Source: Podarcis gaigeae
Taxonomy: Eukaryota
Length of the DNA stretch: 64,000 nucleotides
Assembly: GCA_964106915.2 (NCBI GenBank)
Contig: OZ066914.1
Reading direction: 5' to 3' (one strand)
Shown here in pieces: positions 9,625 to 60,449 of the stretch; position 1 is the first letter of the stretch; every line of letters begins with the position of its first letter. The notes beneath the pieces are model-generated. The model ran no database searches and was not told the origin of the DNA. It worked only from the letters and a program-made list of their open reading frames with translations. Made by a program: the position numbers and the translations under genes.

Positions 9625-9993
9625 TGGACGCGGGTGGTGCTGTGGTCTAAACCACTGAGCCTCATGGGTTTGCCGATCAGAAGATTGATGGTTCGAATCC
9701 CTGTGATTGGGTGAGCTCCTGTTGCTTGGTCCCAGCTCCTGCCAACCTAGCAGTTCGAAAGCACGCCAAACTGCAAGTAGATAAATAGGTTCCGCTCCAG
9801 CGGGAAGGTAAACGGCATTTCAGTGCGCTGCTCTGGTTTTGCCTGAAGCGGCTTAGTCATGCTGGCCACATGACCCGGAAAAACTGTCTGTGAACAAACG
9901 CCATCTCCCTCAGCCTGTAAAGCGAGATGAGTGCTGCAACCCCAGAGTCGTCTGCGACTGGACTTAACTGTCAGGGTCCTTTACTTTTGCCTT
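9625..9993 (+). mobile_element. Sauria SINE (lacertid POM/Squam1 type)
   Basis: tRNA-like head (GGACGCGGGTGGTGCTGTGG...GGTTCGAATCC), CCTTTAC-type tail, and 16-bp flanking duplication TAATCTGTTTCCAGAG (9604-9619, 9994-10009). Homologous copies at 25158 and 52142. Confidence 0.9.
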
Positions 9994-10475
9994 TAATCTG
10001 TTTCCAGAGCACAAGGCAAGGTTGAGTTCTGTAGGACATAGAGAACTCTTGAGTAACATCACCATGGCAAGACTGGACCTTGCTTTGTAGTCAATTGAGA
10101 AACTAAATTGCACAGCATTTCTATTGACTGCAAATCCCCACAGCATGATACCTTGGCACTGGGAAATTAGGAGTTCCTCAGCTTTTCTTCTTTGCTAAGA
10201 GCTTACAAGGGTGAATGGGTTTTTTTTACTGGTAGAACTGTGGGTTCCTGTTCCTCACTTAAGGAGGCTTATCCCCAAACCTTGTGGCAGAGTAAGGCAT
10301 TAATACTTTTTGCTGTGGGGGGCATGCAGATTGGCTTTGCCTTGAATTGCCCACCAGGGGGTTTGAAGGAACACGGACAAGCTGTTGCATTGTAATCCAT
10401 GTATGCTGGCTGTCTAAGGCAGGGTTCAGCAACCTTTTTCAGCCATGGGCTGGTCCACCGTCCCTCAGACCATGT

Positions 10476-10847
10476 TGTGAGAAGTCGTTCGTGGAAACAA
10501 ACAGACAAAGGACTTCAATATAAGGTTAACCCTTTTATTAGTCGCGTTTGCAAAGGCGGACCCTCCGTACCCGTGGATACGAAGAGCCCCGTTCAGGCGT
10601 AGGCGCAGCAGTTTTATCCCTACAGCTGCCGCCCCTCTCTCAGAGGCTTGGCTTACAATCTACTTATCAGAGTTCAACACATTTCTAATACATTGTCCAC
10701 TCTACACTAACCACTTCATCTATTATCAGATATGGGCCTACGCCCCTTGGATTTCTTTATCCTGTGTACGCAGCTCATGGGGACTTTCCAGACTGAGTTT
10801 GAGGCACACCCTCGCTTGTAATTTTTCCTTTATTTCTTAATCTCACA
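10476..10847 (-). repeat. ERV 3' LTR
   Basis: Direct repeat of 15524-15895. Minus-strand AATAAA at 10534-10539, TATA-like GATAAAA near 10612-10618, kB motif GGGACTTTCC at 10780-10789. Confidence 0.97.
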
Positions 10848-11859
10848 ATCCCCCCTCTCTTTGATACCTTGCCTCAAACTCACATAGCTGCTCCCAGTGA
10901 TTTCTCTCCTCCTCATCTGTCGGTATGGGTTCGTATCTCATTGCCATTAGTTGAGTGGTTACATGCCGCTGGGCTATTAGGGAGAGTGAGTTGTTAATAG
11001 TCTTAACGAAAATGGGCAATACACAGGGGATTAGTACGCATCCAGCGGCTATTAACCCAATTAAAGCTACAATGGCTTGTAATCCAGGTAATTTTGGAAA
11101 CCATGAGCTGAATAATTCCTTGAAGTTAAGGCCTTCCCATGTTTGCACAGGAACATGCGCTAACTTTATCATTCGGTCAGCTATATCTTTTACTACCCTT
11201 CCGCTATCATCTATTTCAATACAGCAATTTGTTAGATTAAATTTTCCACAAACCCCGCCTTCTTTCGCTAATAAATAATCGAGCGCTAATCTGTTTTGCA
11301 TAATATAGGTACGGCTTTTTGCACTTTCCTTAGCGAGTTTTGTTAAAGCGGCAGCGGTTTCATTAGTTATAATTTCTACTACAGCTTGTAAGCGAATAAT
11401 ACGATTTAATAGATAAATTGGGTCCCTCCCAAAAGATCCCGCTGTTCCATCATTAGCCCAAGTTGCGGGACCATAATATTGAATTATTCTTTCGGGGGGC
11501 CACTCATTATCCTGCCATGTCCCTATGTGAATCGCCCTCTTTCTCCTGGGCCCAATTTCTTCATATACAGGCATACCCAGCTTAGCTTTCGTCTCTAAGG
11601 GGAGTAAGAAGAAGCTGGGTCGAAGGGTGGTCAATACACAGGACCCTACCCAATTTAGAGGCAGCCTGTTATATGCATACCCCCCACATGCCCAATAAAA
11701 TCCATCTGGGGTTGTCCATTCCTTCGAGGTGTTTTGGGGGTCCTGGAGAAAGGTCATGTTAATCATGTTAGCTAATGCAGGTGGCCATTCTCTGGTAATG
11801 TTATCTGAACTCCACCATTGCTTATCATTCCACTGTCCCACACAAGGGGTATCTCCCAC
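10843..11859 (-). pseudogene. env: Env remnant (C-terminal SU plus complete TM), ERV3/HERV-R-like; signal peptide and N-terminal SU deleted
   Basis: Furin site RRKR; WPPERIIQYYGPATWA and LNRIIRLQAVVEIITNETA segments recognised as ERV3-type; immunosuppressive domain QNRLALDYLLAKEGGVC; CGKFNLTNCC; hydrophobic anchor IVALIGLIAAGCVLIPCVLPIFV. Confidence 0.93.
10848..10863 (-). other. ERV polypurine tract
   Basis: Minus-strand AAAGAGAGGGGGGA, separated by one T from the 3' LTR. Confidence 0.9.
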
Positions 11860-11861
11860 CT

Positions 11862-13314
11862 TGGTGCTCCCCTCTCTTTTGGGCCAAGACCCCTACAGCA
11901 GTCTGGGAACCAATCGTTACATACAAGTGGAACGGTTGCTGAAGATTGGGCAGTGCTAAGACCGGGGCCCCGATCAGTGTCCTTTTTATTTCTTCCCATT
12001 TTAATCCATCCTCCTGTTCCCATGTTACCTTTTCGTCCCCAATGAGTTTTTGATTTAAAAATTGAACCAATTTTGCATATTGGTCTATCCACAATCTACA
12101 GTATCCCAGTAGTCCTAACATCCTCCTCACGTCTGTTTTATTTCTTGGGGGTTGCAATTCCAAAATTCCCTTAACTCTCTCTGGGTCTAGTTTTCTTGTT
12201 CCTCCCTCCAACAGATGCCCTAAATATTTTACTCTCTTTTGCACGAACTGCAGTTTTTCCTTTGACACTTTTACTCCTAATTTTCCCAACCAGTTCAATA
12301 ATCTTATAGAATCCTGCCTCACTTCTTTTTCTTTTTCTCCTATCAATAACAGATCATCCACATATTGCAACAGACGGTTATGGCTAGTGGGAACGAAGTC
12401 AGCCAGCTTCTCTCCTATTGCCTGTCCAAAGAGAAGTGGACTCTCCGTATACCCCTGGGGCAAGACTGTCCATCTGTACTGCTGTTTTCTGCCTGTCTTT
12501 GTATCTTCCCATTCAAAAGCAAACAAATCCCGACTCTCAATGTCCAAAGGACATGCCCAGAATGCATCCTTTAGATCTATTACTGTATACCATCGAGTGG
12601 AGGGGGGGGATACGGCTAAGGAGAGTATACGGGTTGGGTACCACTGGAAAACGGAACTACTATATTGTTTACATTTCTCAGATCTTCAACCATCCGATAT
12701 TTTCCGTCCTTTTTCTGTACCGCTAGGATGGGGGAATTAAAAGGTGACATGGTAGGTTCCAATAGTCCTTGTTTTAATAACCCATCCACCACTGGCTGCA
12801 GTCCCATTCTTCCCTTCCGGGTCATAGGGTACTGAGGGGTCCATGACTGGGTGATTCCTGGTTTTACTATGATCTTAATGGGGGCTATATCTAGTTTTCC
12901 CACCGTTCCACCACCTGTCCATACTATTGAATCTATTTGTCCTTCATCTTCCTCTCGTAAAAGATACATGGGGGTCCCTAAATCTAAGTCCATTAGTCGG
13001 AACCCCAATTCTACCATCAGATCTCTTCCCAACAAATTTATCCCTGATTCGGGTATAAACAATAATGACCCTTTCACTGATCGGTCTCCTCTTGTTATAG
13101 TGGTTTCCTCTAACTGTATAACTTCTTTCGCCTTACCGCTTACTCCCACCACTTTCAAATTTGACGTTGTCTTGCGTACCCCAGAAATGGGTGTACAAAC
13201 GGAAGACCGAGTTGCTCCTGAGTCTACCAGAAAGACCAATGATTTTCTAGAGGGCCCCACACATAAATTCACCAGTGGCTCATTCCGGGCCCTCCGGACT
13301 GAGCCGGAGGTTTC
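11862..13314 (-). pseudogene. pol: ERV pro-pol: protease plus reverse transcriptase, frameshifted, truncated before RNase H proper and integrase
   Basis: Protease FLVDSGA and NLLGRDL; RT motifs SPFNSPILAVQK, YRMVEDLR, IDLKDAF, LPQGY and YVDD. Two frame changes between ~12600 and ~12655, one in a G8 run. In frame with gag across the TAG at 13315-13317. Confidence 0.93.
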
Positions 13315-15058
13315 CTATTCGTATAAACTAAACAACTCTGCCACTCCAGTGTCCTCCTCCGTCTCCGGTTGTCTTTTCGTCTGACTCCCCCTTCCTACAT
13401 TGTTTTTCTCCTGAATTTGAGTCCTCGGAGTCCGGCATTCTCGGGCAAAATGGCCAGGTTTGTTACACCTATAGCAAATAACACCGGGGCCCTGAGAATA
13501 GTTCCCCCGTCCTCTTCCCCTTCCTCGATACCCTATATATCCCTGCCCTCTGGTGGACTCTTCTTTAAATTGTTTTGGATTTTCCCACGCTTTCTGCAAC
13601 GTGGCTGCCATCATTTGACATTTCTGCTTGTTTTTGACTGCCTCTCGGTTTACATAAACCTGTTGGGCAGTTCTCACTAGTTCTATGATGGCAGCATCCT
13701 GCCAATTCATTTTTTGAAGTTTCTTTTGAATATCTGGCCACGCCTTTGTGACAAACTGCATTTTTAAAAGATTATCAAATGCCGCCGAATCCGGCGCCAC
13801 CCCCGAATATTTAGTCAAGTGGTCTCTGATTCTCTGTATAAAATCGCCAGGCGATTCCTCTTTCTGTTGGTTGACCTCAAACGCTTTAGTTAGGTTCGTG
13901 CTTTGAGGTACAGCTCTTTTAATTCCTTCTAAGATCATTTCTTTCAAGTCCTTCATGTGGGTCTGATGGGTGTCATCATTAATATCCCAATTAGGGTCGG
14001 CTATTGGATACTTTACATCCGCCGCGACCGCTCCCTGTTGTGCCTGTTGTCGGGTGTCCCAATAGTTCATAGCCGCCCTCCTGATCATGGCTTTTTCCTC
14101 CGGGGTAAACAAATGTCCCAGAATGTACATCAGTTCTGTGTATGTATATAGGTGTGGCCCCATCCACATTTGCAGGAGGTTAGCGACCTCCTGACTATTC
14201 TCATGTAATTTTGGCAGAGTCTGTTTTAGTTCTCTAAGTTCTGATGGCTTAATGGGACTGACCACATATACCATGACTGGCTGTCCGTTAGCATTGATAC
14301 CTCCTGGTGTTTCTCTAAGTGGATAACTCTGGACCGGAGAATCACTATTGACTCCAAATCTAGCGGGACTAAATGGTAAGTTTTCTACGTCCCTCTTTAG
14401 TTGGACTAGTTCTCTTTGTAGCCTAGGATAGGGAGGCGGAGCGGATGGGGTACTGAACTCGCCTGTTGATCCTCCCTCCCCTTCCCTACCTAAAACTTTG
14501 GTCTCTATTTCTCTCCCTTGTCCCTGACTTCTAACCGGTGCATCTAATGGTATGTAGGGGAGGAGCATCGGTGTGCCAGGTGTTACTGAGGGAGGTTGAA
14601 CCAAAGGGAGGGGGATCCGTGTGCTCGGTACGACCGGGGGAGGTTGAACCGAGGGAACCGGTTTCTGTTCATTCTCCGACTCGTCCTCCTTAGTCCTCAC
14701 AGGGAGTTGCTTAAGAGGTGGGGGGGTCCGGTCCAAAAAACCAGACGTGAAACCACACTTCCAAATAAGGCTTCTCCCTGTTCCTCTTATTTTCTATAAG
14801 GTACTTTTTCAATTGTGTCATCCAATACCTTTCAGTCTCCCCCTCAGGGTTCCAGTTGTACATTTTGTCCGACCCTATAGGGTATTTTAGCCAAATCACC
14901 CTACAGAAGTTAATCATAGTCACTTTTGACAAACCAACTGTATATTGTCTCATATAATCCTCATTCCATTGTATTAATACTTGTCCTAATGGACTATTAG
15001 GGTCTATAGGACCCTTCACATTTATCTCCTTCTGTCTCTTACTTTGACCCTTACCCAT
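13315..15058 (-). pseudogene. gag: ERV gag (MA, proline-rich region, CA, NC) with one frameshift near 14720-14740
   Basis: Myristoylation start MGKGQS, late-domain cluster PSAPPPYPRL, MHR-like QQKEESPGDFIQRI, single zinc knuckle CYRCNKPGHFAREC, amber stop. Confidence 0.92.
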
Positions 15059-15269
15059 GGTTTACAATGTCTCCAATTTCACTCTCTATCACAATCACAC
15101 GGAATCGCCTGGCCGCTTCCCTCGCGGGATAGACGGAACCGCAAGCTAATCCTCTCGTCAGGGCAGAGCCCTGATCCACACTCACGGGTCCGTATGGAAC
15201 CTCTCTTTCACTCAAGAGACGAGTCTCTCACCCCCTCCCCGTAACACAGTCTACAAAATTCTCATGTCT

Positions 15270-15277
15270 ACTCACCC
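15270..15277 (-). promoter_or_regulatory. Candidate major splice donor in the ERV leader
   Basis: Minus-strand GG|GTGAGT between the PBS and the gag ATG, the usual position of the env donor. Confidence 0.5.
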
Positions 15278-15501
15278 AATACAGTCCAGCGCCGCTTCTC
15301 GTGACTAGTGAACAGGCGGGCGTCCCCGCTGGGCTCTCGCGGTCCCTGACCGCTAATAATCGAGACTGTCTCTCCCACCTATATTGAGTCCTGTCTTAGC
15401 CCTTGTGGATCACTATGAACAAATCCCGGCCCCGAGCCACTCCGAAAAGATGGAGGGGCGCCTGCCCGGGGTCTGAGTATCGCTCAAGCCACCCGTCAAG
15501 G

Positions 15502-15519
15502 GCCCCACGTTGGGCGCCA
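15502..15519 (-). other. ERV primer binding site, tRNA-Lys1,2
   Basis: Minus-strand TGGCGCCCAACGTGGGGC (18 nt), 4 nt downstream of the 5' LTR. Confidence 0.92.
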
Positions 15520-15523
15520 GAAT

Positions 15524-15895
15524 TGTGAGAAGTCGTTCGTGGAAACAAACAGACAAAGGACTTCAATATAAGGTTAACCCTTTTATTAGTCGCGTTTGCA
15601 AAGGCGGACCCTCCGTACCCGTGGATACGAAGAGCCCCGTTCAGGCGTAGGCGCAGCAGTTTTATCCCTACAGCTGCCGCCCCTCTCTCAGAGGCTTGGC
15701 TTACAATCTACTTATCAAAGTTCAACACATTTCTAATACATTGTCCACTCTACACTAACCACTTCATCTATTATCAGATATGGGCCTACGCCCCTTGGAT
15801 TTCTTTATCCTGTGTACGCAGCTCATGGGGACTTTCCAGACTGAGTTTGAGGCACACCCTCGCTTGTAATTTTTCCTTTATTTCTTAATCTCACA
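15524..15895 (-). repeat. ERV 5' LTR
   Basis: Identical to 10476-10847 except A15718 versus G10670; adjacent to the PBS. Confidence 0.97.
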
Positions 15896-17485
15896 ATGTG
15901 GTGGGCTGGACTATATTTTGGAAAAAAATAATGAACGAATTCCTATGCCCCACAAATAACCCAGAGATGCATTTTAAGTAAAAGCACACATTCTGCTCAT
16001 GTAAAAACACCAGGCAGGCCCCACAAATAACCCAGAGATGCAATTTAAATAAAAGGACACATTCTGCTCATGTAAAAATATGCTGATTCCTGGACCATCC
16101 ACAAACTGGATTGAGAAGGTGATTGGGCCGCATCCGGCCCCCGGGCCTTACGTTGCCTACCCCTGGTCTAGGGGATCACAGTCTTTACTGTTTATGCAAT
16201 CCCAGGGAGCTAGCAGAAAATGGAGGCAGCCAACACTGGACCACCATAAATGGATAATGAGTAAATCAGAATGAACAAGGATGAGTGTTGTGTGTTTTGT
16301 TACCTTTTGATAGATAGCCAAACAAACTAAGGGTGATTTTTCAGAGTCAAATAAGAGATTTTCATTGTTCTTTGTATAAAAAAATGAAAAAGCAGAAGCA
16401 TTTTTTGTTTTGTGTTCAGATTTTTTTAATTGCAGTATTCGTCTTAAAAAAAAAATGTCATCCCTATTCGTACTGCAGTTGAAACTACCATTTCAATTCC
16501 ATTTATATACTGTGGACAGATAATAATCAACACAGTATGCTTCCAATTACACATAAATGAATAGAAACTGTGGTTCTTGTTGTGACAGAAATGATATTCT
16601 TGCATAATATCTTGTATGATATTCACAGAGGTGAATTGTTTGCAGGAATGCTCATAATTTCAGCATGGAAATAATACTATCGTACCCATTTTTTGTGGAG
16701 GGGGCTTGCCTTGATAAGTAATCTTCCTCTGTTCTCCTGGGCACTCCTCTGGAATAAAAATAGGCCAGGGATTTTATAGTTCTTATCCACGTATCTTAGT
16801 CTAGTTGAATTGTGACCCTCTCTTATGCCTATTTAGACCTCTGGCTACATTTATTCTTCCCCTGCTGCTTCCTATTAAATAAGTTAAAACAAATACTCAT
16901 CAGATTGACTAGCACAATGTTAAAATATTTTTGTTTCTATATAACCTTACTTATTTGGACTCCCCATGATCTTAGATCTCATGTATTACTGTCAAACCAG
17001 GTGTCACCCATCCTTTATTTGTGAATCTGTTTTCCCCAACCTAAAGGCAGAGCCCACCACTAGTGAATGGCTGAGAAATTATATCTTGATCATGGATGCT
17101 TTTTTATATCCCCAAAGGTATTTGCTGCTGCTTTTATTTCTTTGTTCAAGTCTTGTATGCAGGTGTTAAACTGTAGTGGGCCCAGGACAGAACCCCATAG
17201 CTAAGAAACTAGGATGTGCAAGGAGGTTCAGAGCTAAGTAGGAATTTGCATCTGAGGTCCCTACACCCAGAGCCAGCAGTGTATGTGTGTAGTTCCAGAG
17301 TGGAATAGTATGTGTGAGGCATGAACAGTTGAGGCAAAACCTAGCTCCATATTTTAATTTTAACAGATAACCATCCTAGATAAGTATTGTACTGAGAGAT
17401 GCTTTGTTTCTTCACTGTTTCTTGATCTGTTTGCCATTTCTTTTGAATGCTGATCATACTTGAAAATGATACCCATTTTGTATTA

Positions 17486-24100: not shown

Positions 24101-25157
24101 TACTTGTGCTTGATTGTATGAGGTGGTCTGCTGCCGAAGCTCTCAGTGGCTCAGCCCATGAAACTGAAATGTCTGTCTTTTTCTTCAGGGAATGGTGTAT
24201 TAGGCTAACTGCTTGATCCTGCATAATCTTTCTCAGAGTTATTCCTTGATAAATATTTCATGAACAAGTTTTTTTCAACTTTTCTCAGTTAACAGATACA
24301 CACAGTACTCTTTTCCAGAGGAATTTCATTTCAATTGAGCTTATTTTAAAACATTAATGCTCACAGCTGAAGAGTTTTCTGTGGCATATGGAAGTCTTAA
24401 TATGCATACACCTAAAATATACGTAACCTTTTTTTATTGTTAGGTCAGCTTGTCCCTTATTTACTCCAGTTGATGCCAGACTATTTTGTACTGGTTTAAT
24501 GCTTGCTGTGAGCTCTTCTGGCAGTATTTGTCCAATGATATTTTTCTTTGATGTTTAGAGCTTTTAGCTAAGCATATAATGGAATGGGTAAAAGGTGATT
24601 ATTCAGTTCTAGAAAGTAGGCTGTGTTTTATATGATGGGTTTTGCTGCCTGCAACTTGTTTTTAAAGTGAAAGTATAAGATTCAAAATTGCAGACTTGAG
24701 GTTTCTAAATTGGAAGAAGCTCAGGAAATTAGCATTTACAAGGTATCCTCTGAAACCGCCTGTGTATTTTGGGCATGTTTATTTATAAATATCATTTCAC
24801 TAATGCAACATTTTTGCCAGGTAATTTTATTCAAAAATTTAATTGTCTCCTTCTTTGCTGCACATATTCATCATTCCTAAACGCAGTAGCGATTCAGTTT
24901 GTAGGATGCTTGAGAACCCTGTAGAATGCCTCAGAAACTTTTCATACTTGTGAAACTTTGCATGATATGTGTGTATAGGCCTCATCCCCAGCCACCTTGA
25001 GTCCTGGGATGCCTGGAGAAGGGAGATTTGAACACAAATCTGGTCCTTCCTCACTTAAGAACCTGCTGCCACCAGATAAAGTGGATTATTTTTTTTTAAA
25101 GCTGCCCTTTATCAATCCTCCTAAAATCTTTCCTAGCACCTCCCTGAACCCTCTTAA

Positions 25158-25518
25158 AAAGGTAAAGGTAAAGGACCCCTGACAGTTAAGTCCAGTTGCG
25201 AACGACTCTGGGGTTGCGGCACTCATTTTGCTTTACTGGCCAAGGGAACCAGCGTTTGTCCGCAGACAGTTTTTCCGGGTCATGTGGCCAGCTGCTTCTG
25301 GTGAAACCAGAGCAGCTCATGGAAACGCCATTTACCTTCCTGCCAGAGCGGTACCTATTTATCTACTTGCACTTTTTGGCGTGCTTTCGAACTGCTAGGT
25401 TGGCAGGAGCTGGTACCGAGCAACGGGCGCTCACCCTGTCACAGGGATTTGAACTGCCGACCTTCCAGTCGGCAAGCCCTACACTCAGTGGTTTAGACCA
25501 CAGTGCCACACGCATCCC
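25158..25518 (-). mobile_element. Sauria SINE (POM/Squam1 type)
   Basis: Reverse-complement homologue of 9625-9993; (AAAGGT)n tail at the left; degenerate TSD ending CTCTTAA. Confidence 0.9.
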
Positions 25519-48229: not shown

Positions 48230-50094
48230 ACATTGTAGGAACATGGTGCACTTTTTACTTTGTCAGCAATGTCTGCAACCTGCAATATGAGGAGAATGGA
48301 CTATGATAGCATTGCCTGGGTAATTTTTAATTGTCTACTAATGTGGCTACTAGGATCTTTGTGTGGCTGACACAAATGTTAGTGTGCAGGGGGCATGTCT
48401 AGCAATGTAATGCTGCTGCCCCATCTTCTGTTCATTATCCACATGTACTGGATGTGTGAATAGTTGTGATAATTAGATTCATTAACTTGCACCAACCCAT
48501 GAACCAGTTACTGAACCTTTATTGTCCTGAATTGGAACTGAACCAGATTACCATCAGTCACAACTGAACCCAAACAAAAGCCACAAAACCAGAACGTTTA
48601 GTATTTTGATTATCTGGATCTAATAAATGTGGCTTTAGGTGGGGTGGCGGAGGATTTATTTACCATGTTGAGTGAACTTAAGAGATGCCTTTCCTGTGGA
48701 ACCCTAACAGCCATGAAGCCTTACCAGGTTATGCATTTGTTACTTCACTGTTTGATAGAATGATCTAATGGTGAAAGAACACTTTGTAGCAAAAAGAGTA
48801 CATATTTGTTCTCTTTGCAGAGTTTTTGAATCTTTCCCCTCACTTTGCTTGTAGTATGTTGTGCTAATTCAGTTTTGGTTCAGCTGCACCAGTTTTTATA
48901 AACACACAATTTGTTTTCTTGTCTTGATGCCAGGCATTGTTTTTCAAGCTTCCAGACCATGACCAGAACTCTGAATACAAACTACACATTTATTTTTTGC
49001 TTGGTTGAAGAGCACTGCCTAGGAGCAGAAGGTGCTTTTGACAGCTATATTAATGAGACAAGATGAACATAAAATGTCTATTTGGTACAAACCCATTGTG
49101 TACAGAAAGCATTTTTTATTAAGCCTTTAAAGTATTGTGTATTTTAGGAAAGATATTTAAATAAGAATAAAAAACAATCCAACTCTTTTAACAGCTGACT
49201 TATTAGTTGAATTGAGATGAACTAGAGCAGTCACTAAAGGAATTTCTAAGGGCTGTGTGTGTATGTGTGTGTGTGAGAGAGAGAGATAAACTCAAGAAAA
49301 TTCCTATAACTTTTCAAGGCACTTGCATATGCCTTCCTATTACCACAGTTCCTGGGCTTCTTTTATGCCAAATTATATTGAGCTACAATGCTGTTGTTGC
49401 TATTTATTATTAATATTACCTACCATTCACCAGAAGGTTCCAGGACAAGTTACAGCAATATAAAATATGGTGTAAGGCTAAATATTAATAATTGAAATGG
49501 ATATGAACACTTCTGATCCTCACACAGCAGTGCTAGGAGAGGTGAGGGAAATGCAAGAGTCTGAGTCTTGCTGTAGCTCATGCCCATAATGATAAACCAA
49601 AGTTCATTGTTATGTCCAAATGGAACCAAAGCCAAGTTCAAGGTGGCTAAGTCATTATACTGGTAATATTTCTGTTACCAGATACAGTATTCACAACATA
49701 CAAGATTGCTACATGGCGTTCTTTTCATTTTTCTCAAATGCTGTGAGAATAAAAATGCTGCCGAACTTTTTTCTTATCTCATCTGTTACACTATTAATGA
49801 GTTCTTTTAAATTAATTGTTTTTCCAGTTCTGTGATATGCCAGCGTGCTCTTTTGGTGGTAAAAGTCATGGTAATCTTAATATGTTGCAAATTACTTAGT
49901 GGATGAAATGAAAATTCTTCATCTACATGGCGCTTGATTTTTCTATTTAAATGCTTTGAAATGTTAAATTGAGAATTACGTTGCTGTGCCCATGTACCTC
50001 TCTTATCTGAAATGAGATTAATAGGAACATAGAACCGGACTGTTCCTTTGGCACTCACATTTCAGAATACCCATCTCTTGGCAAATCTCTCAAT

Positions 50095-50694
50095 TGTGCT
50101 GGACCCGGGGGAAAGGTACCGTGAGCGTAGTCTGAGTCCACACGAAGAGGGGCGAGGTCCGAGGCGGAGAGCCGGGCGGGGAACAGGAACGCTGGAACAG
50201 GAGGCCGAGCAGGGAACAGGAACACCGGATGGTCAGGAACAGGAGGCCGAGCAGGGATCAGGAACACAGGCAGGTCCAAAGCCAACAACGACGTTGCTCC
50301 CGCAACCTGGGACCGGGCTGACTGGGCTTTTATCCTCTTCTAAGGCCAGGGGCGGTCCCGGCCCCCAGGAGCCCCGCCTCCTCTGGCCTTAAGACGAGCA
50401 CTCCTCCTGGGAGCAACCAGTTCCCTTCGCCTCTCTGCCCTAAGCCTCTGCAGATCAGGAGAGGCCGAAGGGTTACTGGGCCCTGGAGGAGGCTCACCTG
50501 TAGCCACTGAGTCCTCAAGCCCCTCTGGGGCCAGAAGGGTTTCACCTGGGGCCAGCTCCTGGTGCTCTGCCACAGGTGCAGGCTCTTCAGCATCTAGGCC
50601 TTGCCCCAGTTCAGCCGGCCCTGGAGGCGGGGACTCCTGTGCAGGCTGGGATTCCTCTGGTTCATCCTCTGAATCGGAATCCCAGGCCATCACA
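50095..50694 (-). mobile_element. 600-bp solo LTR (probably Gypsy) carrying an ORF across its U3 region
   Basis: TGTG...CACA ends with imperfect 8-bp inverted termini; perfect 5-bp TSD TCAAT (50090-50094, 50695-50699); TATA-like GGATAAAAG at ~50327-50335 (minus); pyrimidine-rich tandem repeats downstream. Confidence 0.85.
50340..50693 (-). CDS. LTR-encoded 117-codon ORF: acidic/proline-rich, then arginine-rich (RRSARL)
   Basis: Open from LTR base 2 (GTG ATG G) to a TAG just before the TATA-like box. Expression is not shown. Confidence 0.45.
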   Translation of the reverse strand: MMAWDSDSEDEPEESQPAQESPPPGPAELGQGLDAEEPAPVAEHQELAPGETLLAPEGLEDSVATGEPPPGPSNPSASPDLQRLRAERRRELVAPRRSARLKARGGGAPGGRDRPWP

Positions 50695-51923
50695 TCAATA
50701 AATATTTCCGTCTCCCCTTCTCCTTATTTTGTTGCTTTCTACTATATTGTTTGCTTGTTGTTCTTATTGTATTTGGGTCACCTTAAGAGATATCTTGGGA
50801 TGTTTCTCGTTTTCACAAGAGGAAGGCAAATCATCATGTTGCCAGTGTTCAAATCCAGTGTTCTATAGACCAAAACATGCGTCCCTTCCATGCATAGGGC
50901 TAATGTGTGGAGGCTGGAACACGGCCATACCTGCGGGCCACTCACCCTCCATCTTCTTACACATGAGCAGCTGCTCATGAATTGGTACTCTGGGTACACA
51001 TAACTTACTGTTGCTTCTGATCATCCCAAAGCTGATAAGGACTCCACTTCCCACACAGAGGTTAATCCTTGGATTAATAGAATTGCATTTCATACAAGCC
51101 TATTCACTAATTGGGGTCAAGACGGTGGGCACCACTGTCTGTGCCATCTATATGACACATTCAAACAGCTGCAAATAGAGGTCAAGCCTCTATCCAATAG
51201 CCCCCACACTGTAGAACCTCCTTCCAGAATGTGTCTGGAAAGCTTTGTCAATGGTCTTTGGCAAGGTTTATAAAACTTGTGTATTCCATCAAGCTTTTTG
51301 AGTAAAACTATTTTTGTTAGGTGTCTTTAACAATGGTTTAAATATTATTCAATTTTTGTTTCAGCTGTACACCACTTCAGTGGCATCAACATATTGTAAT
51401 AAACTTCATCAATGAAGAAATTGATTTATGGGATTGTTTTATTCATTTAAAGCATTTTCTATTCTTCTCTTGTTGTTTTAAGGATTTGTAGAAACTGAGA
51501 GATAAGGAAGGCCCAGTTAAATCTGCTTCCCACAGTTGTTTTAGAAGGAAGGCTCAGAAATGTGTCACATTCTGAATACATCTGACTTTATGCAAAGACT
51601 TTGTACATATTATTACATATTGTTCCTTATATGAAGGAGATGTCTGACCATGGGGTTGTAATTTATTTATTTACACGGCCATCAAGATAAGTATTCAACT
51701 TCCTAATATATCTTCATTGAACTGTTGATTATGGATCCAATATGTCATTCCTGTCCAGTTATCACCAGTGAAGATCCCATGAGTGTACATGTGAAGTTAA
51801 GATTTTTTGCATGGAAGTGTATAACTTCTTCATATTGAATTGCAATTGTCATTTTACTGCCTGTTCATTCAGTTTGGAGATATCCTTTTGACACATAAGT
51901 TCTGAAAAACAAATTAAATTATG

Positions 51924-52059: not shown

Positions 52060-52141
52060 ACCTCAGCTCATGATGTGCAGTCCTAAAGTCGTGTGCACTA
52101 TTGAGCTCAATAAGTTTTACGTCCTAGTATGTTTAGGATTA

Positions 52142-52493
52142 AAAAGGTAAAGGGACCCCTGACCATTAGGTCCAGTCGTGACCGACTGTGGGGTTGCGGT
52201 GCTCATCTCGCTTTATTGGCCAAGGGAGCTGGCGTACAGCTTCCAGGTCATGTGGCCAGCATGACTAAGCCGCTTCTGGCGAACCAGAGCAGCACACGGA
52301 AATGCCGTTTACCTTCCTGCCGGAGCGGTACCTATTTATCTACTTGAACTTTGACGTGCTTTCGAACTGCTAGGTTGGCAGGAGCAGGGACCGAGCAACA
52401 GGAGCTCACCCCGTTGCGGGGATTCGAACCGCCAACCTTCTGATCAGCAAGTCCTAGGCTCTGTGGTTTAACCCACAGCGCCACCCGCGTCCC
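52142..52493 (-). mobile_element. Sauria SINE (POM/Squam1 type), young copy
   Basis: Perfect 13-bp TSD ATGTTTAGGATTA (52129-52141, 52494-52506); CpG-rich; intact pol III A/B-box-like head. Confidence 0.93.
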
Positions 52494-55508: not shown

Positions 55509-55878
55509 TGAAATATACTCAGAGTCGCAAAGTGATTTCATGCTCTTTATTCAGCTCATAGTGGTGAGGAGGAATTAATGAATGTCCCCTCAAAGTATCT
55601 GCTTTATATACATTATTTACACAATGGGCTGCACATGATTGGCTAATTCTGGAATTCTACTGTAAGCCAATCAGGTTGTGGATTCACTTATATCTGGAGC
55701 ATGATTGGGTGGTTCCTGCCAACCAATCATATTGCTGCATTGTTCTAGGACCAATCAGACTGCTGCATTCTGAATCCTATTGTTCTAGGACCAATCAGAC
55801 TGCTGCAATTTGGATCCTATTGTTCTAGGACCAATCAGACTGCTGCAGTTTGGATCCTATTCAACTCAGTACATAACA
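55509..55878 (-). repeat. Gypsy 3' LTR
   Basis: TG...CA; three 40-bp CCAAT-containing repeats; minus-strand TATATAAA and AATAAA. Confidence 0.97.
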
Positions 55879-55890
55879 CCCCTCCCCTCT
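55879..55890 (-). other. Gypsy polypurine tract
   Basis: Minus-strand AGAGGGGAGGGG abutting the 3' LTR. Confidence 0.9.
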
Positions 55891-58800
55891 AAGTTCCAGT
55901 CCTGCCCGGGAGGTCGCATTCATAGTCCTCGAGGTACGCCGGCGGCCTACGTGTGCGTTGTGGCCTGGGGTGTTCCCTGGTCCGGGGTTCAGGTTCTGGC
56001 TCGTGTTCCAAGGATGCTGGCTGTGATGGGCCTGTTTGGTCTGGCGCAACCGGCTCGCTCAGTCGTGGTTCTGGCTCCGGTGTCCTTTTGGCCTCGCAGG
56101 TCCTCTCTGTATTTACTGATTCTGCCTCTCCTGCTGCCCCCTCCTGCTCTATGGGCCCCGCTGTTCCCTTGGGACTCCTCTGACCTTTCCTCCTCCTGGT
56201 TTTCTCCCGGGAATCGTCGCCGTATCTGGTCGCAGTGGCGGCGCCAGCATTGCCCCCCATCCGTTAGCACCTCGTATGACACGGGGCCAGTGACCCTGGT
56301 GACTGTGGCAGGTACCCATGCTGGGCCTGCCCCAAAATTCTTTGCGTACACTAGGTCCTGGGCCTTGAAGGTCCAGGGGTTCCTGCCTTCCCCCACCACT
56401 ACCTCATCCTGAGCTCTATCAGGGTGAAGGCGGTCCAATCTGATTGCAAGGCGGCGACCCATTAGTAGTTCAGCGGGGCTCCGGCCAGTTGTTGAGCTGG
56501 GGGTGCTGTGCTGTGCTAGGAGGAATGTGGCAAGGCGGTACTCCCAATCCCCTTGCGTCATGCGGCGAAGGGTGTCCTTGGTGGTCCGCACCATGCGTTC
56601 TGCTTGGCCATTGGTGGCAGGGTGGAATGGCGCTGAACGGATGTGGCGGATGGCGTTCTGCGCTGTGAAGGTTTGGAATTCTCCTGACGTAAATGCAGTC
56701 CCATTGTCTGAGACGAGAGTGTCAGGGAGCCCGTGGGTTGCAAAGAGCCTGCGTAGTACCTGGATGGCTGTGGATGTAGAAGTGGACGGTACCAGTGCAA
56801 CTTCCAGCCATTTGGTGTAGGAGTCCACCACTATGAAGAATGTTTTCCCCTGAAAGGGGCCAGCGAAGTCCACATGCAGGCGTGACCATGGTGCTCGGGT
56901 GGACTCCCAGGACTGGACTGGGGCCCTTGGGGGATCTGGGCGGGATTCTTGGCAGGCCTGGCAGTGTTTGACCCAGGCCTCTATCTCTCCATCGATCCCT
57001 GGCCACCACACATAACTCCTGGCCAGGGCCTTCATTCTTACTACCCCTAGGTGTGTCTCGTGTAGGGCTGTGAAGACCCTTTTGCGGAGGGGCTGGGGAA
57101 CAACGACCCTGCTTCCCCATAACAGGCACCCCTTGTGGGCCGACAGTTCATGTTTGCGGGTTGTGTAGCCAGCGAATTCTGGCCCAGGACTGCTGCTGGG
57201 CCATCCCCTCCACACCCAGTCCAGGACCCGGGAGATGACCCTATCTTTCTTGGAATGGTGTGCAACTTCTTGTGCCTGAATGGGGCGGTCAGGAAGCAGC
57301 TCCAGGCTCATAACCTCTTGTGCAGGTGCTGGGTCGGGGCCTGTTTCTGGTAGTGGTAGCCTGCTGAGGGCGTCCGCATGGCCCATCGCTTTCCCCGGGC
57401 GGTGAATCAGTGCATACTGGTAGCTGGCAAGGAAAATTGACCACCTGAGGACACGAGGAGACAGCACTTGGGGGGGTCTGCTTTTCGGGAGCAAACAAGC
57501 CAAGCAACGGCTTGTGGTCAGTCACCACGGTGAAGGGCCGCCCGTACAAGAAATCATGGAATTTTTTTACTCCCTTCACAATTGCGAGCCCCTCCTTGTC
57601 TATTTGCGAGTAGTTCCGCTCGGTTGCGTTGAGTGTCTGGGAAAAGTATGCTACCGGTACCTCTCTCCCATCCGGGAGTTGGTGTCCCAGGACAGCGCCA
57701 ATGCCATAGGGCGAGGCGTCGCATGCTAGCACCACCGGCAGCCTCTCGTTGAAGTGTGCCAAGACCGAGTTTGAGACAAGCAGGTCCTTGACTGCCTGGA
57801 ATGCAGCCTCCTGGCGCTGGCCCCACACCCAAGGGGCCCGCTTGTCCAGGAGTCTGTGTAGGGGCTCTGCTACCGCCGCTTTGTGGGGAAGGAAGGAATG
57901 GTAAAAGTTCAATAGTCCCAAGAAGGCCTGAAGTTCAGTCTTGCTCTTGGGTGCTGGGGCATCACAAATGGCCCGTACCTTGTCCCCAGTTGGGTGGACC
58001 CCTTCTGCGTCCACCATAAATCCCAGAAAGTCCACCTGAGGCACTCCTAGTAGACATTTTTCCCGCTTCACCTTGAGACCCGCCATCTGGAAACGGTGCA
58101 GAACGGTGTGGAGGCGGTCCTCAAACTCCTCTGGTGTGGGCCCGGCAATCAACACATCATCGAAGAAGGGGGTGACGCCAGGAATCCCTTTAAGGAGCAA
58201 GTCCATTAGATTCTGGAATATGCCTGGTGCCACACTGACACCGAATTGCAGCCGCTTTACCCTGAATGCTCCTCTGTGCATCACAATTGTCTGTGCCTCT
58301 GCTGTGGCCTCATCTACTGGAAGCTGTTGATATGCTTGGGCCAAGTCCAGCTTGCCAAAAATTTTCGACCCAGCCAGGGTGGCAAGGACATGGCTGACCA
58401 CTGGCACTGGGTATGCATGGGCCGTGAGGGCCTTGTTTATGGTACATTTGTAGTCTGCGCAGATGCGGACTGAACCATTAGGCTTGACGGGTGTGACGAT
58501 TGGGGTTTCCCAGGGGGCATTAGGCACCGGCTCCAGCACTCCTTGCTCCACAAGCCGGTCCAATTCCTCGTCTATACGGGGTTTCAGGGCGAACGGGACC
58601 CGGCGGGCCTTTAGCCTGACCGGTCGTACTGCGGGGTCAAGCTGTAGAGCAATGGGGGGGCCCGTATACTGTCCCAATTTCCCATCGAAAACCTCTGGAA
58701 ATTCCTTGCATATGGCATCCACGTCCACTTGTAAGGTAGTGTGGTTCACCCCGGTGATGGCTAGCCCCAGTGGTCCAAACCATGCCAATCCCAGTAAGCT

Positions 58801-59958
58801 AATGTAGGGGCCCTTGACCACAAGCAAGTCCAGCTGCCGCGTCCGCCCTCGGTATTGCACCCTGAAGGTCCCCACCCCCATTGTGGGGACCTTACGTTTC
58901 TGGAAGTCCCGGAGGGTGAATGGGGCCGGCCTGAGTTTGGGACCCCCAGTAGGACACAGTTTCCTTAACGTCCTTGCCGAGATTATGGATAGATTTGAAC
59001 CCGTGTCAAGCTCCATGCGGCATGGGGCCCCCTCTATCCGTACCTCTACATAAATTTTCTCTATGTTGGGGTAGGGCAACTGGTATACCTGGACGTCCGT
59101 GAGCTCCGTCGAGTTGCCTTGGTGCGTTGGGCCCCGGGACCTGGGGCTCTTGGATTGGTCATCTGATGCCTGGCGTCGGGTGGGCCGAGCCCGACACACC
59201 CGGGCGATGTGTCCCAATTTTCTGCACTGCCTGCACTCTACGTTGCGGAAACGGCAGGTCCTCCTCTCGTGACTTTCCCCGCAGCTTGTGCAGTTCCCTC
59301 CTTCTCGTCGAGGCAGCTGTGGTATGTGGGCTGCTTGAGTGTGCTGCTGTACTCGGTGCACTTCCTCCCTGTCAGATCCTGAGTCGTCGGTGAGGTCTTC
59401 GTGGTGAACCCTCGGTTGGGCTGGCAGGCTCGGCCGTGCCTCTTGTGTCGACCTCTTGGCAGCTTCCGTTGCCAGGGCCTCCTCCAGAGCGACCTGGAAC
59501 GTTAGGTCCTTCTTAGCGTAGAGGCGTCGTTGCAGCTTCTCATCCTTCATGCCACCGACGAGGCGGTCCCGAAGCATGTTCTCCAGCTCTGAAAAGTTGC
59601 AGAACTGGGCGGCTTGGCGGAGAGAGGTCACAAACCCAGTTATGGTTTCCCCAGGGGCTTGCCGCTTTGCGTAGAAGGCATTTCGACGAGCCACCACTGA
59701 GGGCTGTGGCGAAAAGTGCCACTTAAGCTATTCCATTATTCTTTTGTATGGAACAGTAGCGACGTCTTCAGGCGCAAGGAGAGCCCGGGCGATTTCAAAT
59801 GTCTCCTCTCCGCAGACGCTGAAGAATATCGCCCTCTTCTTGGCGTCTTCTTCATCGGTGACCCCTTTGGCTTCTAGGAGGAAGGTAAAATGGGAGGCGT
59901 ACGCTTCCCAGTCTCCCGTTGCTGGGTTGAACGGCGAGAAGCTGCTGTCGGTTGCCAT
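55889..59958 (-). pseudogene. Gypsy gag-pol polyprotein disrupted by one in-frame TAG (59728-59730) and frameshifts (~57475 and probably ~56150)
   Basis: Gag LRDRLVGG and two zinc knuckles (CTSCGESHERRTC, CRQCRKLGHIARVC); protease LDTGS; RT KLDLAQAY, QFGV and FFDD; RNase H CDAS, KEGLA and TDHKPL; integrase HETH..CQAC, HVDF, SDNG and QAER; C-terminal RRPPAYLEDY in an alternative frame. Confidence 0.95.
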
Positions 59959-60064
59959 TCTGAGTTCCTTGTGTCCCGGAGCTGAAGCCTGGATACACGG
60001 TGCGAGGCAGCGGTGCGGCAGGTGGCGGTGCTGCGGTGCTGTGTGTGGCAGTCAGCTCAGCGGG

Positions 60065-60082
60065 ATCCCATCCTCGTCGCCA
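60065..60082 (-). other. Gypsy primer binding site, tRNA-Ser(GCU)
   Basis: Minus-strand TGGCGACGAGGATGGGAT, complementary to the vertebrate tRNA-Ser(GCU) 3' end, 1 nt from the 5' LTR. Confidence 0.85.
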
Positions 60083-60083
60083 G

Positions 60084-60449
60084 TGAAATATACTCAGAGT
60101 CGCAAAGTGATTTCATGCTCTTTATTCAGCTCATAGTGGTGAGGAGGAATGAATGTCCCCTCAAAGTATCTGCTTTATATACATTATTTACACAATGGGC
60201 TGCACATGATTGGCTAATTCTGGAATTCTACTGTAAGCCAATCAGGTTGTGGATTCACTTATATCTGGAGCATGATTGGGTGGTTCCTGCCAACCAATCA
60301 TATTGCTGCATTGTTCTAGGACCAATCAGACTGCTGCATTCTGAATCCTATTGTTCTAGGACCAATCAGACTGCTGCAATTTGGATCCTATTGTTCTAGG
60401 ACCAATCAGACTGCTGCAGTTTGGATCCTATTCAACTCAGTACATAACA
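60084..60449 (-). repeat. Gypsy 5' LTR
   Basis: Direct repeat of 55509-55878, adjacent to the PBS. Confidence 0.97.

Follow-up and report, generated by a model that had tools for sequence, protein, structure and literature searches.

A candidate acidic-patch motif on the LTR-encoded integrase tail of a lizard chromovirus

The 64,000-nucleotide stretch of Podarcis DNA analysed here ("the window") contains a solo LTR, most of whose U3 is an open reading frame that ends in a peptide resembling the nucleosome-binding core of HMGN proteins. This locus raises the questions of which element the frame belongs to, from where it could be translated, and what the encoded peptide might do.

The solo LTR and its parent element

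The LTR is a true solo LTR, because ATTGA stands on both flanks. Read on the minus strand, from 50694 to 50095, it starts with TGTGATGG and ends with CAGCACA (Table 1). Translation bore out the 117-codon frame described in the initial annotation: it opens at LTR base 2 (50693) and stops at 50342-50340. A plus-strand reading was rejected, as there is no such frame on that strand. The acidic stretch WDSDSEDEPEE, the basic end SPDLQRLRAERRRELVAPRRSARLKAR and RRSARL at 50408-50391 are present as described, and the claim that the entire U3 is coding is nearly right, the frame occupying LTR positions 2-355 of a U3 that we place at 391 nt. The 40 best-scored of 1945 candidate genomic matches to the LTR are 97-100% identical to it, as are all of the best 150 of 6342 candidates in a protein search. 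The 117-residue peptide has no Pfam match and no PDB match, and the best score in an ESM Atlas search with the 117 residues, 0.76, is a lead at most. Sixteen other open reading frames in the window, screened for a host gene around the LTR, gave no Pfam match.

Table 1. Features of the solo LTR and of its flanks, in window coordinates
Feature	Position	Strand	Remarks
Solo LTR, 600 bp, TG..CA	50095..50694	-	Young Ty3/gypsy chromovirus family
Target site duplication, upstream copy ATTGA	50695..50699	-	
Target site duplication, downstream copy ATTGA	50090..50094	-	
117-codon frame and stop	50340..50693	-	In full-length elements, last 117 Gag-Pol residues, after the chromodomain
Sole in-frame ATG	50688..50690	-	Within the LTR terminal motif; promoter further downstream
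Codons 81-92, LQRLRAERRREL in the window copy	50418..50453	-	Commonest residue identical in five subfamilies, 12/12 columns
RRSARL, HMGN-like, codons 96-101	50391..50408	-	Predicted acidic-patch anchor; 6/6 columns kept
ATAAAA, putative TATA box	50328..50333	-	Lies 30 nt upstream of the putative transcript start
10 nt complementary to the primer binding site of full-length copies	50294..50303	-	Putative self-primer, RNA 5' end and U3/R border

The length of the frame was dropped as evidence of coding. The U3 is 63% GC, and a stop-free run of 117 codons appeared in some of the six frames in 895 of 3000 dinucleotide shuffles, so length alone is not beyond chance at this base composition; the antisense frame of the U3 is likewise open across 117 codons. 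In the frame continuous with pol, an open run of this length from base 2 appeared in only 67 of 3000 shuffles, and RRSxR[LIV] arose in 165 of 200000 shuffles of the 117-residue peptide. Nor does the ATG in good Kozak context (GTGATGG) count as a sign of coding, since it is part of the LTR terminal TGTxATG. Relatives have V-M at the same spot at the LTR start (DSVMTH in Anolis, DSVMAP in Rhineura and GTVMPH in the protein P0178). Automatic Podarcis gene models (P0002, P0004-P0007) start at the LTR terminal ATG and splice the U3 frame onto gag or onto a receptor exon, in several ways. These models are likely to be annotation artefacts, and annotators should note that the terminal ATG in these LTRs gives rise to spurious gene models.

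The parent is a 5.6-kb, self-priming Ty3/gypsy chromovirus of the Tf1/sushi type. Pairs of LTRs 5.0 kb apart enclose gag-pol, with an internal part of 4.37-4.39 kb in most copies. In copies L031 and L034, Pfam matches follow the order gag (DUF4939, CCHC), PR, RT, RH, IN, SH3_Tf2-1 and Chromo, with no env match. The chromodomain (PF00385, E = 1e-14) lies C-terminal of SH3_Tf2-1 and has the three cage aromatics, Y, W and Y as read from the sequence, as these are defined in PMC3605345. The 5-bp target site duplication is exact in 17 of 21 two-LTR copies and has one mismatch in 2, the LTR end being unresolved in the other 2; paired LTRs of one copy differ at 1-13 sites. The closest named proteins come from lacertid lizards, which makes a lacertid host likely. 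Quick trees, one of them with three rows skipped and the other made from 31 rows chosen by hand, group the family with other squamate elements (support 95-96); these trees were made up of vertebrate and fungal relatives only. The organization is like that of Tf1/sushi (V-clade) chromoviruses such as sushi-ichi, with gag-PR-RT-RH-IN-chromodomain, no env, TG..CA termini and self-priming (PMC6317226).

The "U3 ORF" is the end of Pol, because the single gag-pol frame runs past the chromodomain, across the polypurine tract (PPT) and into the 3' LTR at base 2. It had been proposed that pol might extend through the PPT into the LTR, and full-length elements confirmed this: in copy L034 a single open frame of 1557 codons leads from gag to the LTR stop. 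Long read-through frames were also found in L035-L037, L144 and L147, and related subfamilies do likewise. Of 47 scored junctions 22 are in frame, as are 12 of 21 in the set picked by LTR. Frameshifts are concentrated in one G8 run (6 of 17 copies, against 0-3 in other runs) and go in both directions, +1 and -1; no indel at this run was listed in the short-read contigs of run X15, where rare variants are dropped. This is the pattern expected of slippage or assembly error.

The self-priming arrangement suggests where the transcript starts. Directly downstream of the 5' LTR lies sequence complementary to LTR 390-401; the complement is exact over 10 nt in 20 of the 26 full-length copies examined, spans 7-8 nt in 5 and is missing in 1, and subfamily C shows a compensatory change on both sides of the pairing. 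The same arrangement is known from Tf1/sushi elements (PMC6317226). The position of the complement implies that the RNA starts at about LTR 392, 30 nt below the ATAAAA box (LTR 362-367), and that U3 is about 391 nt long. The box was also considered as a poly(A) signal (one subfamily has AATAAA there), a reading set aside because of the self-primer 30 nt below; no other AATAAA-type signal was located in the LTR. With an RNA start near LTR 392, the U3 frame would be translated only where the 3' LTR supplies it, at the end of Pol. The sole in-frame ATG lies about 390 nt upstream of this start, and a solo LTR probably cannot express the U3 frame from its own promoter. The suggestion that each solo LTR disperses a ready-made coding module is therefore not supported.

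Three raw RNA runs from a related organism, at 148-272 reads each too shallow to decide about the tail, showed no start or end peak and no splice joint. Reads cover U3 on both strands and the internal gag-pol part mainly on one strand at a depth of 0-4, which suggests that sense transcription is low, provided that the libraries follow the common stranded protocol.

Constraint on the tail and recurrence of its motif

We asked whether the frame is preserved among 131 distinct LTR copies and 30 copies of an older subfamily (one of them already among the 131); the column counts exclude 5 of the 131 that could not be assigned to a group. An open frame with RRSARL is found in 77 of 87 young copies, a count to be read with the fact that copies were picked by similarity, which favours intact ones. 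Across five subfamilies, a stop is the commonest codon in none of the columns of codons 1-104, against 6 and 14 columns in the shifted sense frames, and the sole subfamily-level indel is 30 nt. Pairwise dS among the five subfamilies reaches 0.54. The dN/dS ratio of the tail is 0.42-0.65 in 14 of 15 subfamily pairs and 1.19 in one, compared with 0.69-6.4 in shifted sense frames, bearing in mind that transitions alone push the neutral value below 1. RT and IN have dN/dS values of 0.08-0.18 in four of five pairs, so the tail is far less constrained than pol; L154, with 75 alignment breaks, was unusable as a pol control. A McDonald-Kreitman-type test on the five subfamilies was not significant overall (40.5 synonymous and 71.5 nonsynonymous differences between subfamilies against 113 and 252 private ones, p = 0.20), nor for the basic region (p = 0.11) or with four subfamilies (p = 0.24); only codons 1-35 reached p = 0.024.

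Conservation is concentrated toward the end of the tail. The same commonest residue is kept across the five subfamilies in every column of codons 81-92 and 96-101 (Table 1), in 0 of 3 columns between them and in 12 of 37 in the middle of the tail. The two conserved segments together, a stretch chosen afterwards, hold five silent and zero replacement differences between subfamilies. None of the five subfamilies has lost the arginine CpGs at R89 and R100, although these have decayed in 17 of 155 and 20 of 153 single copies; of the CpGs at codon positions 2-3, 0 of 10 persist throughout the five. The retained CpGs are all close to the promoter, and codons 96-100 are invariant at silent sites too, which means that promoter DNA could explain their conservation within this genome.

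The motif was also found in elements of other species. Anolis Pol proteins, in clusters of 366 and 94 members with 62% identity in the SH3-chromodomain core, carry acidic, poorly alignable tails of about 100 residues that end in RRSARIAAK, or RRSLRIAAK in two listed members. P0178 extends about 18 residues past its apparent LTR start and ends in RRSARIAARV; its motif is 7 codons from that start and 10 from the end. RRSPRL and RRSRRL occur in frog elements. The LTR borders of the Anolis, P0178 and frog elements were deduced from protein alone. A survey of 273 retroelement chromodomain proteins in 141 clusters yielded 113 clusters with tails of 8-200 residues (P0019 was filtered out). RRSxR[LIV] is present in 4 of these 113, against a shuffle mean of 0.20 and 0 of 2000 shuffles reaching 4, a count that may be inflated because the survey queries contained the motif; other orders of the same letters occur in at most 2 tail clusters. 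A single clade of motif bearers was rejected on the quick tree of 31 hand-chosen rows (p-AU 1.7e-88, 5 changes), which implies either several origins of the motif or frequent loss. It is missing in 109 of the 113 tail clusters, squamate P0137 and P0148 included, and in P0307 as well. Amphisbaenian and viper tails are acidic with a basic end and lack the motif, and the Anolis relative P0018 ends directly after the chromodomain.

Tails of other kinds were noticed as well. Many teleost Pol proteins (P0306, P0364, P0384, P0400 and others) have an AT-hook-like PRGRP directly after the chromodomain, followed by a short tail that ends in a word like S-P-E-F/Y, and KRGRP occurs in an amphisbaenian tail (P0137). 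Enrichment of AT-hooks in the tails was not established (6 clusters, against a shuffle mean of 2.0 and a maximum of 8).

A candidate chromatin tether and its alternatives

The RRSARL of the tail follows the HMGN-like acidic-patch pattern R-R-S-x-R plus Leu/Ile. It is like HMGN RRSARLSA, Dsup RRSSRLTS and Dot5 RRSARIAT in having RRSAR with Leu or Ile in a low-complexity region, with three Arg and a Ser (PMC12487698, PMC12871379). By cryo-EM, RRSAR was the sole contact of HMGN2 with the acidic patch, and RRSSR made the contact in Dsup (PMC12487698); in yeast Dot5 the same arginines of RRSARIAT are needed (PMC12871379), and the end of the Anolis tail matches this peptide at 7 of 8 positions. Unlike HMGN, the element has RRSARLKA, with Lys instead of Ser at position 7, and bears it at the end of a retroelement polyprotein as a candidate binder. 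The 117-residue tail is not a member of the HMGN family: it lacks the full RRSARLSA core and does not stand alone, being part of Pol.

We consider it somewhat probable, and more so than any alternative, that RRSARL on the LTR-encoded integrase tail is a tether to the H2A-H2B acidic patch of nucleosomes. Such a role, suggested in the initial annotation, is plausible in view of the recurrence of the motif across species and of a complex prediction. The prediction, made for tail residues 74-117 with the H2A and H2B of this genome, scored 0.48 against 0.01 for the best control and was graded as weak support, with no interface given; the partner pLDDT was at least 42 and runs agreed in at least 30% of contacts. 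Of 78 solved pairs 51 reach the mark used, as do 2 of 108 mismatched ones; 5 of the 78 solved pairs and all 4 passing mismatches do so at scores of 0.60 or less. The score is to be read with the caution that peptides are outside the calibration of the tool and that memory of the HMGN and Dsup structures may contribute.

A mechanism can be proposed in which the RNA would start at LTR 392 of the 5' LTR and the tail would be read only from the U3 copy in the 3' LTR. The protease would free the integrase with the tail still attached, giving a predicted integrase end composed of chromodomain, acidic spacer and RRSARL. The chromodomain would read the methylated H3 tail and the motif arginines would grip the acidic patch, two holds on chromatin linked by a floppy spacer of about 90 residues, free in length and sequence. 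The solo LTR would be a leftover of recombination, silent for the U3 frame unless a host transcript ran through it.

Other explanations of the tail were weighed against an acidic-patch tether. The main rival, rather unlikely in our judgement, is a tail that is translated and selected because its basic end is a nuclear localization signal (NLS) or general DNA grip for integrase, the likeness to HMGN being incidental. The bipartite NLS pattern does fit RRRELVAPRRSARLKAR and the tails of P0178 and P0019, and squamate tails without the motif (P0137, P0148, P0307 and the second lineage described below, L155) still end in Arg/Lys clusters; Ty1 integrase, too, bears a C-terminal NLS according to work cited in PMC3605345. 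Anolis tails, however, miss the bipartite pattern yet retain RRS[AL]RI, an NLS does not require Ser at +3 or Leu/Ile at +6, and the exact order RRSxR[LIV] occurs more often than permutations of its letters. The NLS and acidic-patch roles need not exclude each other.

Read-through might instead be a harmless by-product of a pol with no stop before the LTR, a GC-rich, stop-poor U3 and conserved promoter DNA. We regard this as improbable, even though 30% of shuffles give an equally open run in some frame, the selection test is not significant (p = 0.20), many junctions are frameshifted, the motif codons are frozen at silent sites, and many fish and fungal relatives stop at or just past the PPT. 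A by-product does not readily account for the lack of stop columns and the in-frame 30-nt indel across five subfamilies, the absence of replacement changes beside five silent ones in the stretch chosen afterwards (codons 81-92 and 96-101), or the same peptide in tails that differ widely in length and sequence, and the shifts at the single G8 run look like slippage or assembly error. Far less credible still is the proposal that the U3 frame also yields a separate peptide like Nef or Sag from its own ATG, by way of a solo LTR or spliced RNA, which would act as a transactivator or HMGN competitor. Most copies retain the ATG at codon 2, automatic Podarcis gene models begin with it, and RNA reads cover both strands of U3. 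Yet the frame lies wholly above the TATA box and the self-priming 5' end, its ATG belongs to the LTR terminus, there is no second in-frame Met, the three shallow RNA runs from a related organism have no splice joint, and the gene models join the frame variously to gag or a receptor exon, as predictions do; a separate peptide is therefore unsupported.

In HIV and MMTV, the coding sequences of nef and sag overlap U3 as separate genes with their own mRNA. The frame here, unlike these, is the end of pol, and nef and sag, named as precedents in the initial annotation, are not the closest ones: the CR motif of plant CRM elements is closer. Plant CRM group A and beet chromoviruses are known cases in which pol extends into the 3' LTR and bears a targeting motif (PMC3059260, PMC3605345), and the lizard element is like CRM group A and Bingo and Beetle of Beta vulgaris in having the integrase C-terminus encoded by the 3' LTR. 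In CRM elements, which are plant elements, the CR motif replaces the chromodomain; the lizard element, in a vertebrate host, retains a chromodomain with its cage aromatics ahead of the PPT and gains from the LTR a short motif whose type of target is known. The 117-residue LTR-coded extension with its HMGN-like motif also sets the element apart from described Tf1/sushi elements, sushi LTRs being described without any ORF in the account given in PMC3601003. In prototype foamy virus, an arginine anchor of Gag on the acidic patch tethers the genome and steers integration (PMC12125541, PMC9040877); LANA and IE1 are listed with it as acidic-patch systems. The foamy virus anchor differs in sequence and is on Gag, whereas the one proposed here is on integrase. 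The words "retrotransposon" and "HMGN" do not occur in the review PMC9040877, and we found no description of an HMGN-like motif on a retrotransposon integrase, or of such read-through in squamates, in searches of the open literature. The element is a member of the Tf1/sushi chromoviruses that carries a new form of a known kind of device.

If the tether reading is true, the lizard integrase would be two-handed, with a chromodomain for methylated H3 and an acidic-patch anchor, and would be the first HMGN mimic in a transposon. Little is known of how vertebrate LTR retrotransposons select chromatin. Were the motif to bind, a transposon integrase would join the few non-HMGN proteins that bear this anchor, the plant CR motif would have a vertebrate counterpart whose target can be named, and a short, assayable peptide would be at hand; U3 would be in double use, as promoter and as protein code. 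A wider pattern can be put forward tentatively: vertebrate chromoviruses may repeatedly evolve host-like chromatin grips at the integrase end, with U3 as a free workshop, in the form of an LTR-coded HMGN-type anchor in lizard and frog and possibly an AT-hook in fish.

Other elements in the genome and the window

Family copies are spread over many contigs, with an excess on contig G000:C32, which is 29.5 Mb long (1.9% of the genome) and holds 36 of the 150 best family hits. This contig may be the W chromosome or another repeat-rich chromosome. At L005:1386-2582 and L110, young LTRs have inserted into or next to older family members.

A second chromovirus lineage, which is very young, was noticed at L155 (G000:C3:100074000-100080500), L157 and L057-L083. 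Its LTRs are 100% identical in L155, and a 1331-codon frame is present in many of 150 scored hits. It has a degenerate chromodomain, a long acidic stretch and a self-priming complement, and reads 96-109 codons into the LTR, where it has its own conserved basic end motif with L-x-C-W.

The window itself holds further repeats. An ERV-like element at 10475-15897 on the minus strand contains pieces of Gag p30, protease, RT and env spread over several broken frames and is flanked by 375-bp repeats that are 99.7% identical. A Ty3/gypsy element at 55509-60449, also on the minus strand, has pol in two frames, no chromodomain match and 370-bp LTRs that are 98.9% identical. Three copies of a repeat of about 365 bp, at 9626-9994, 25154-25518 and 52139-52493, are 79-82% alike, the latter two being oriented opposite to the first.
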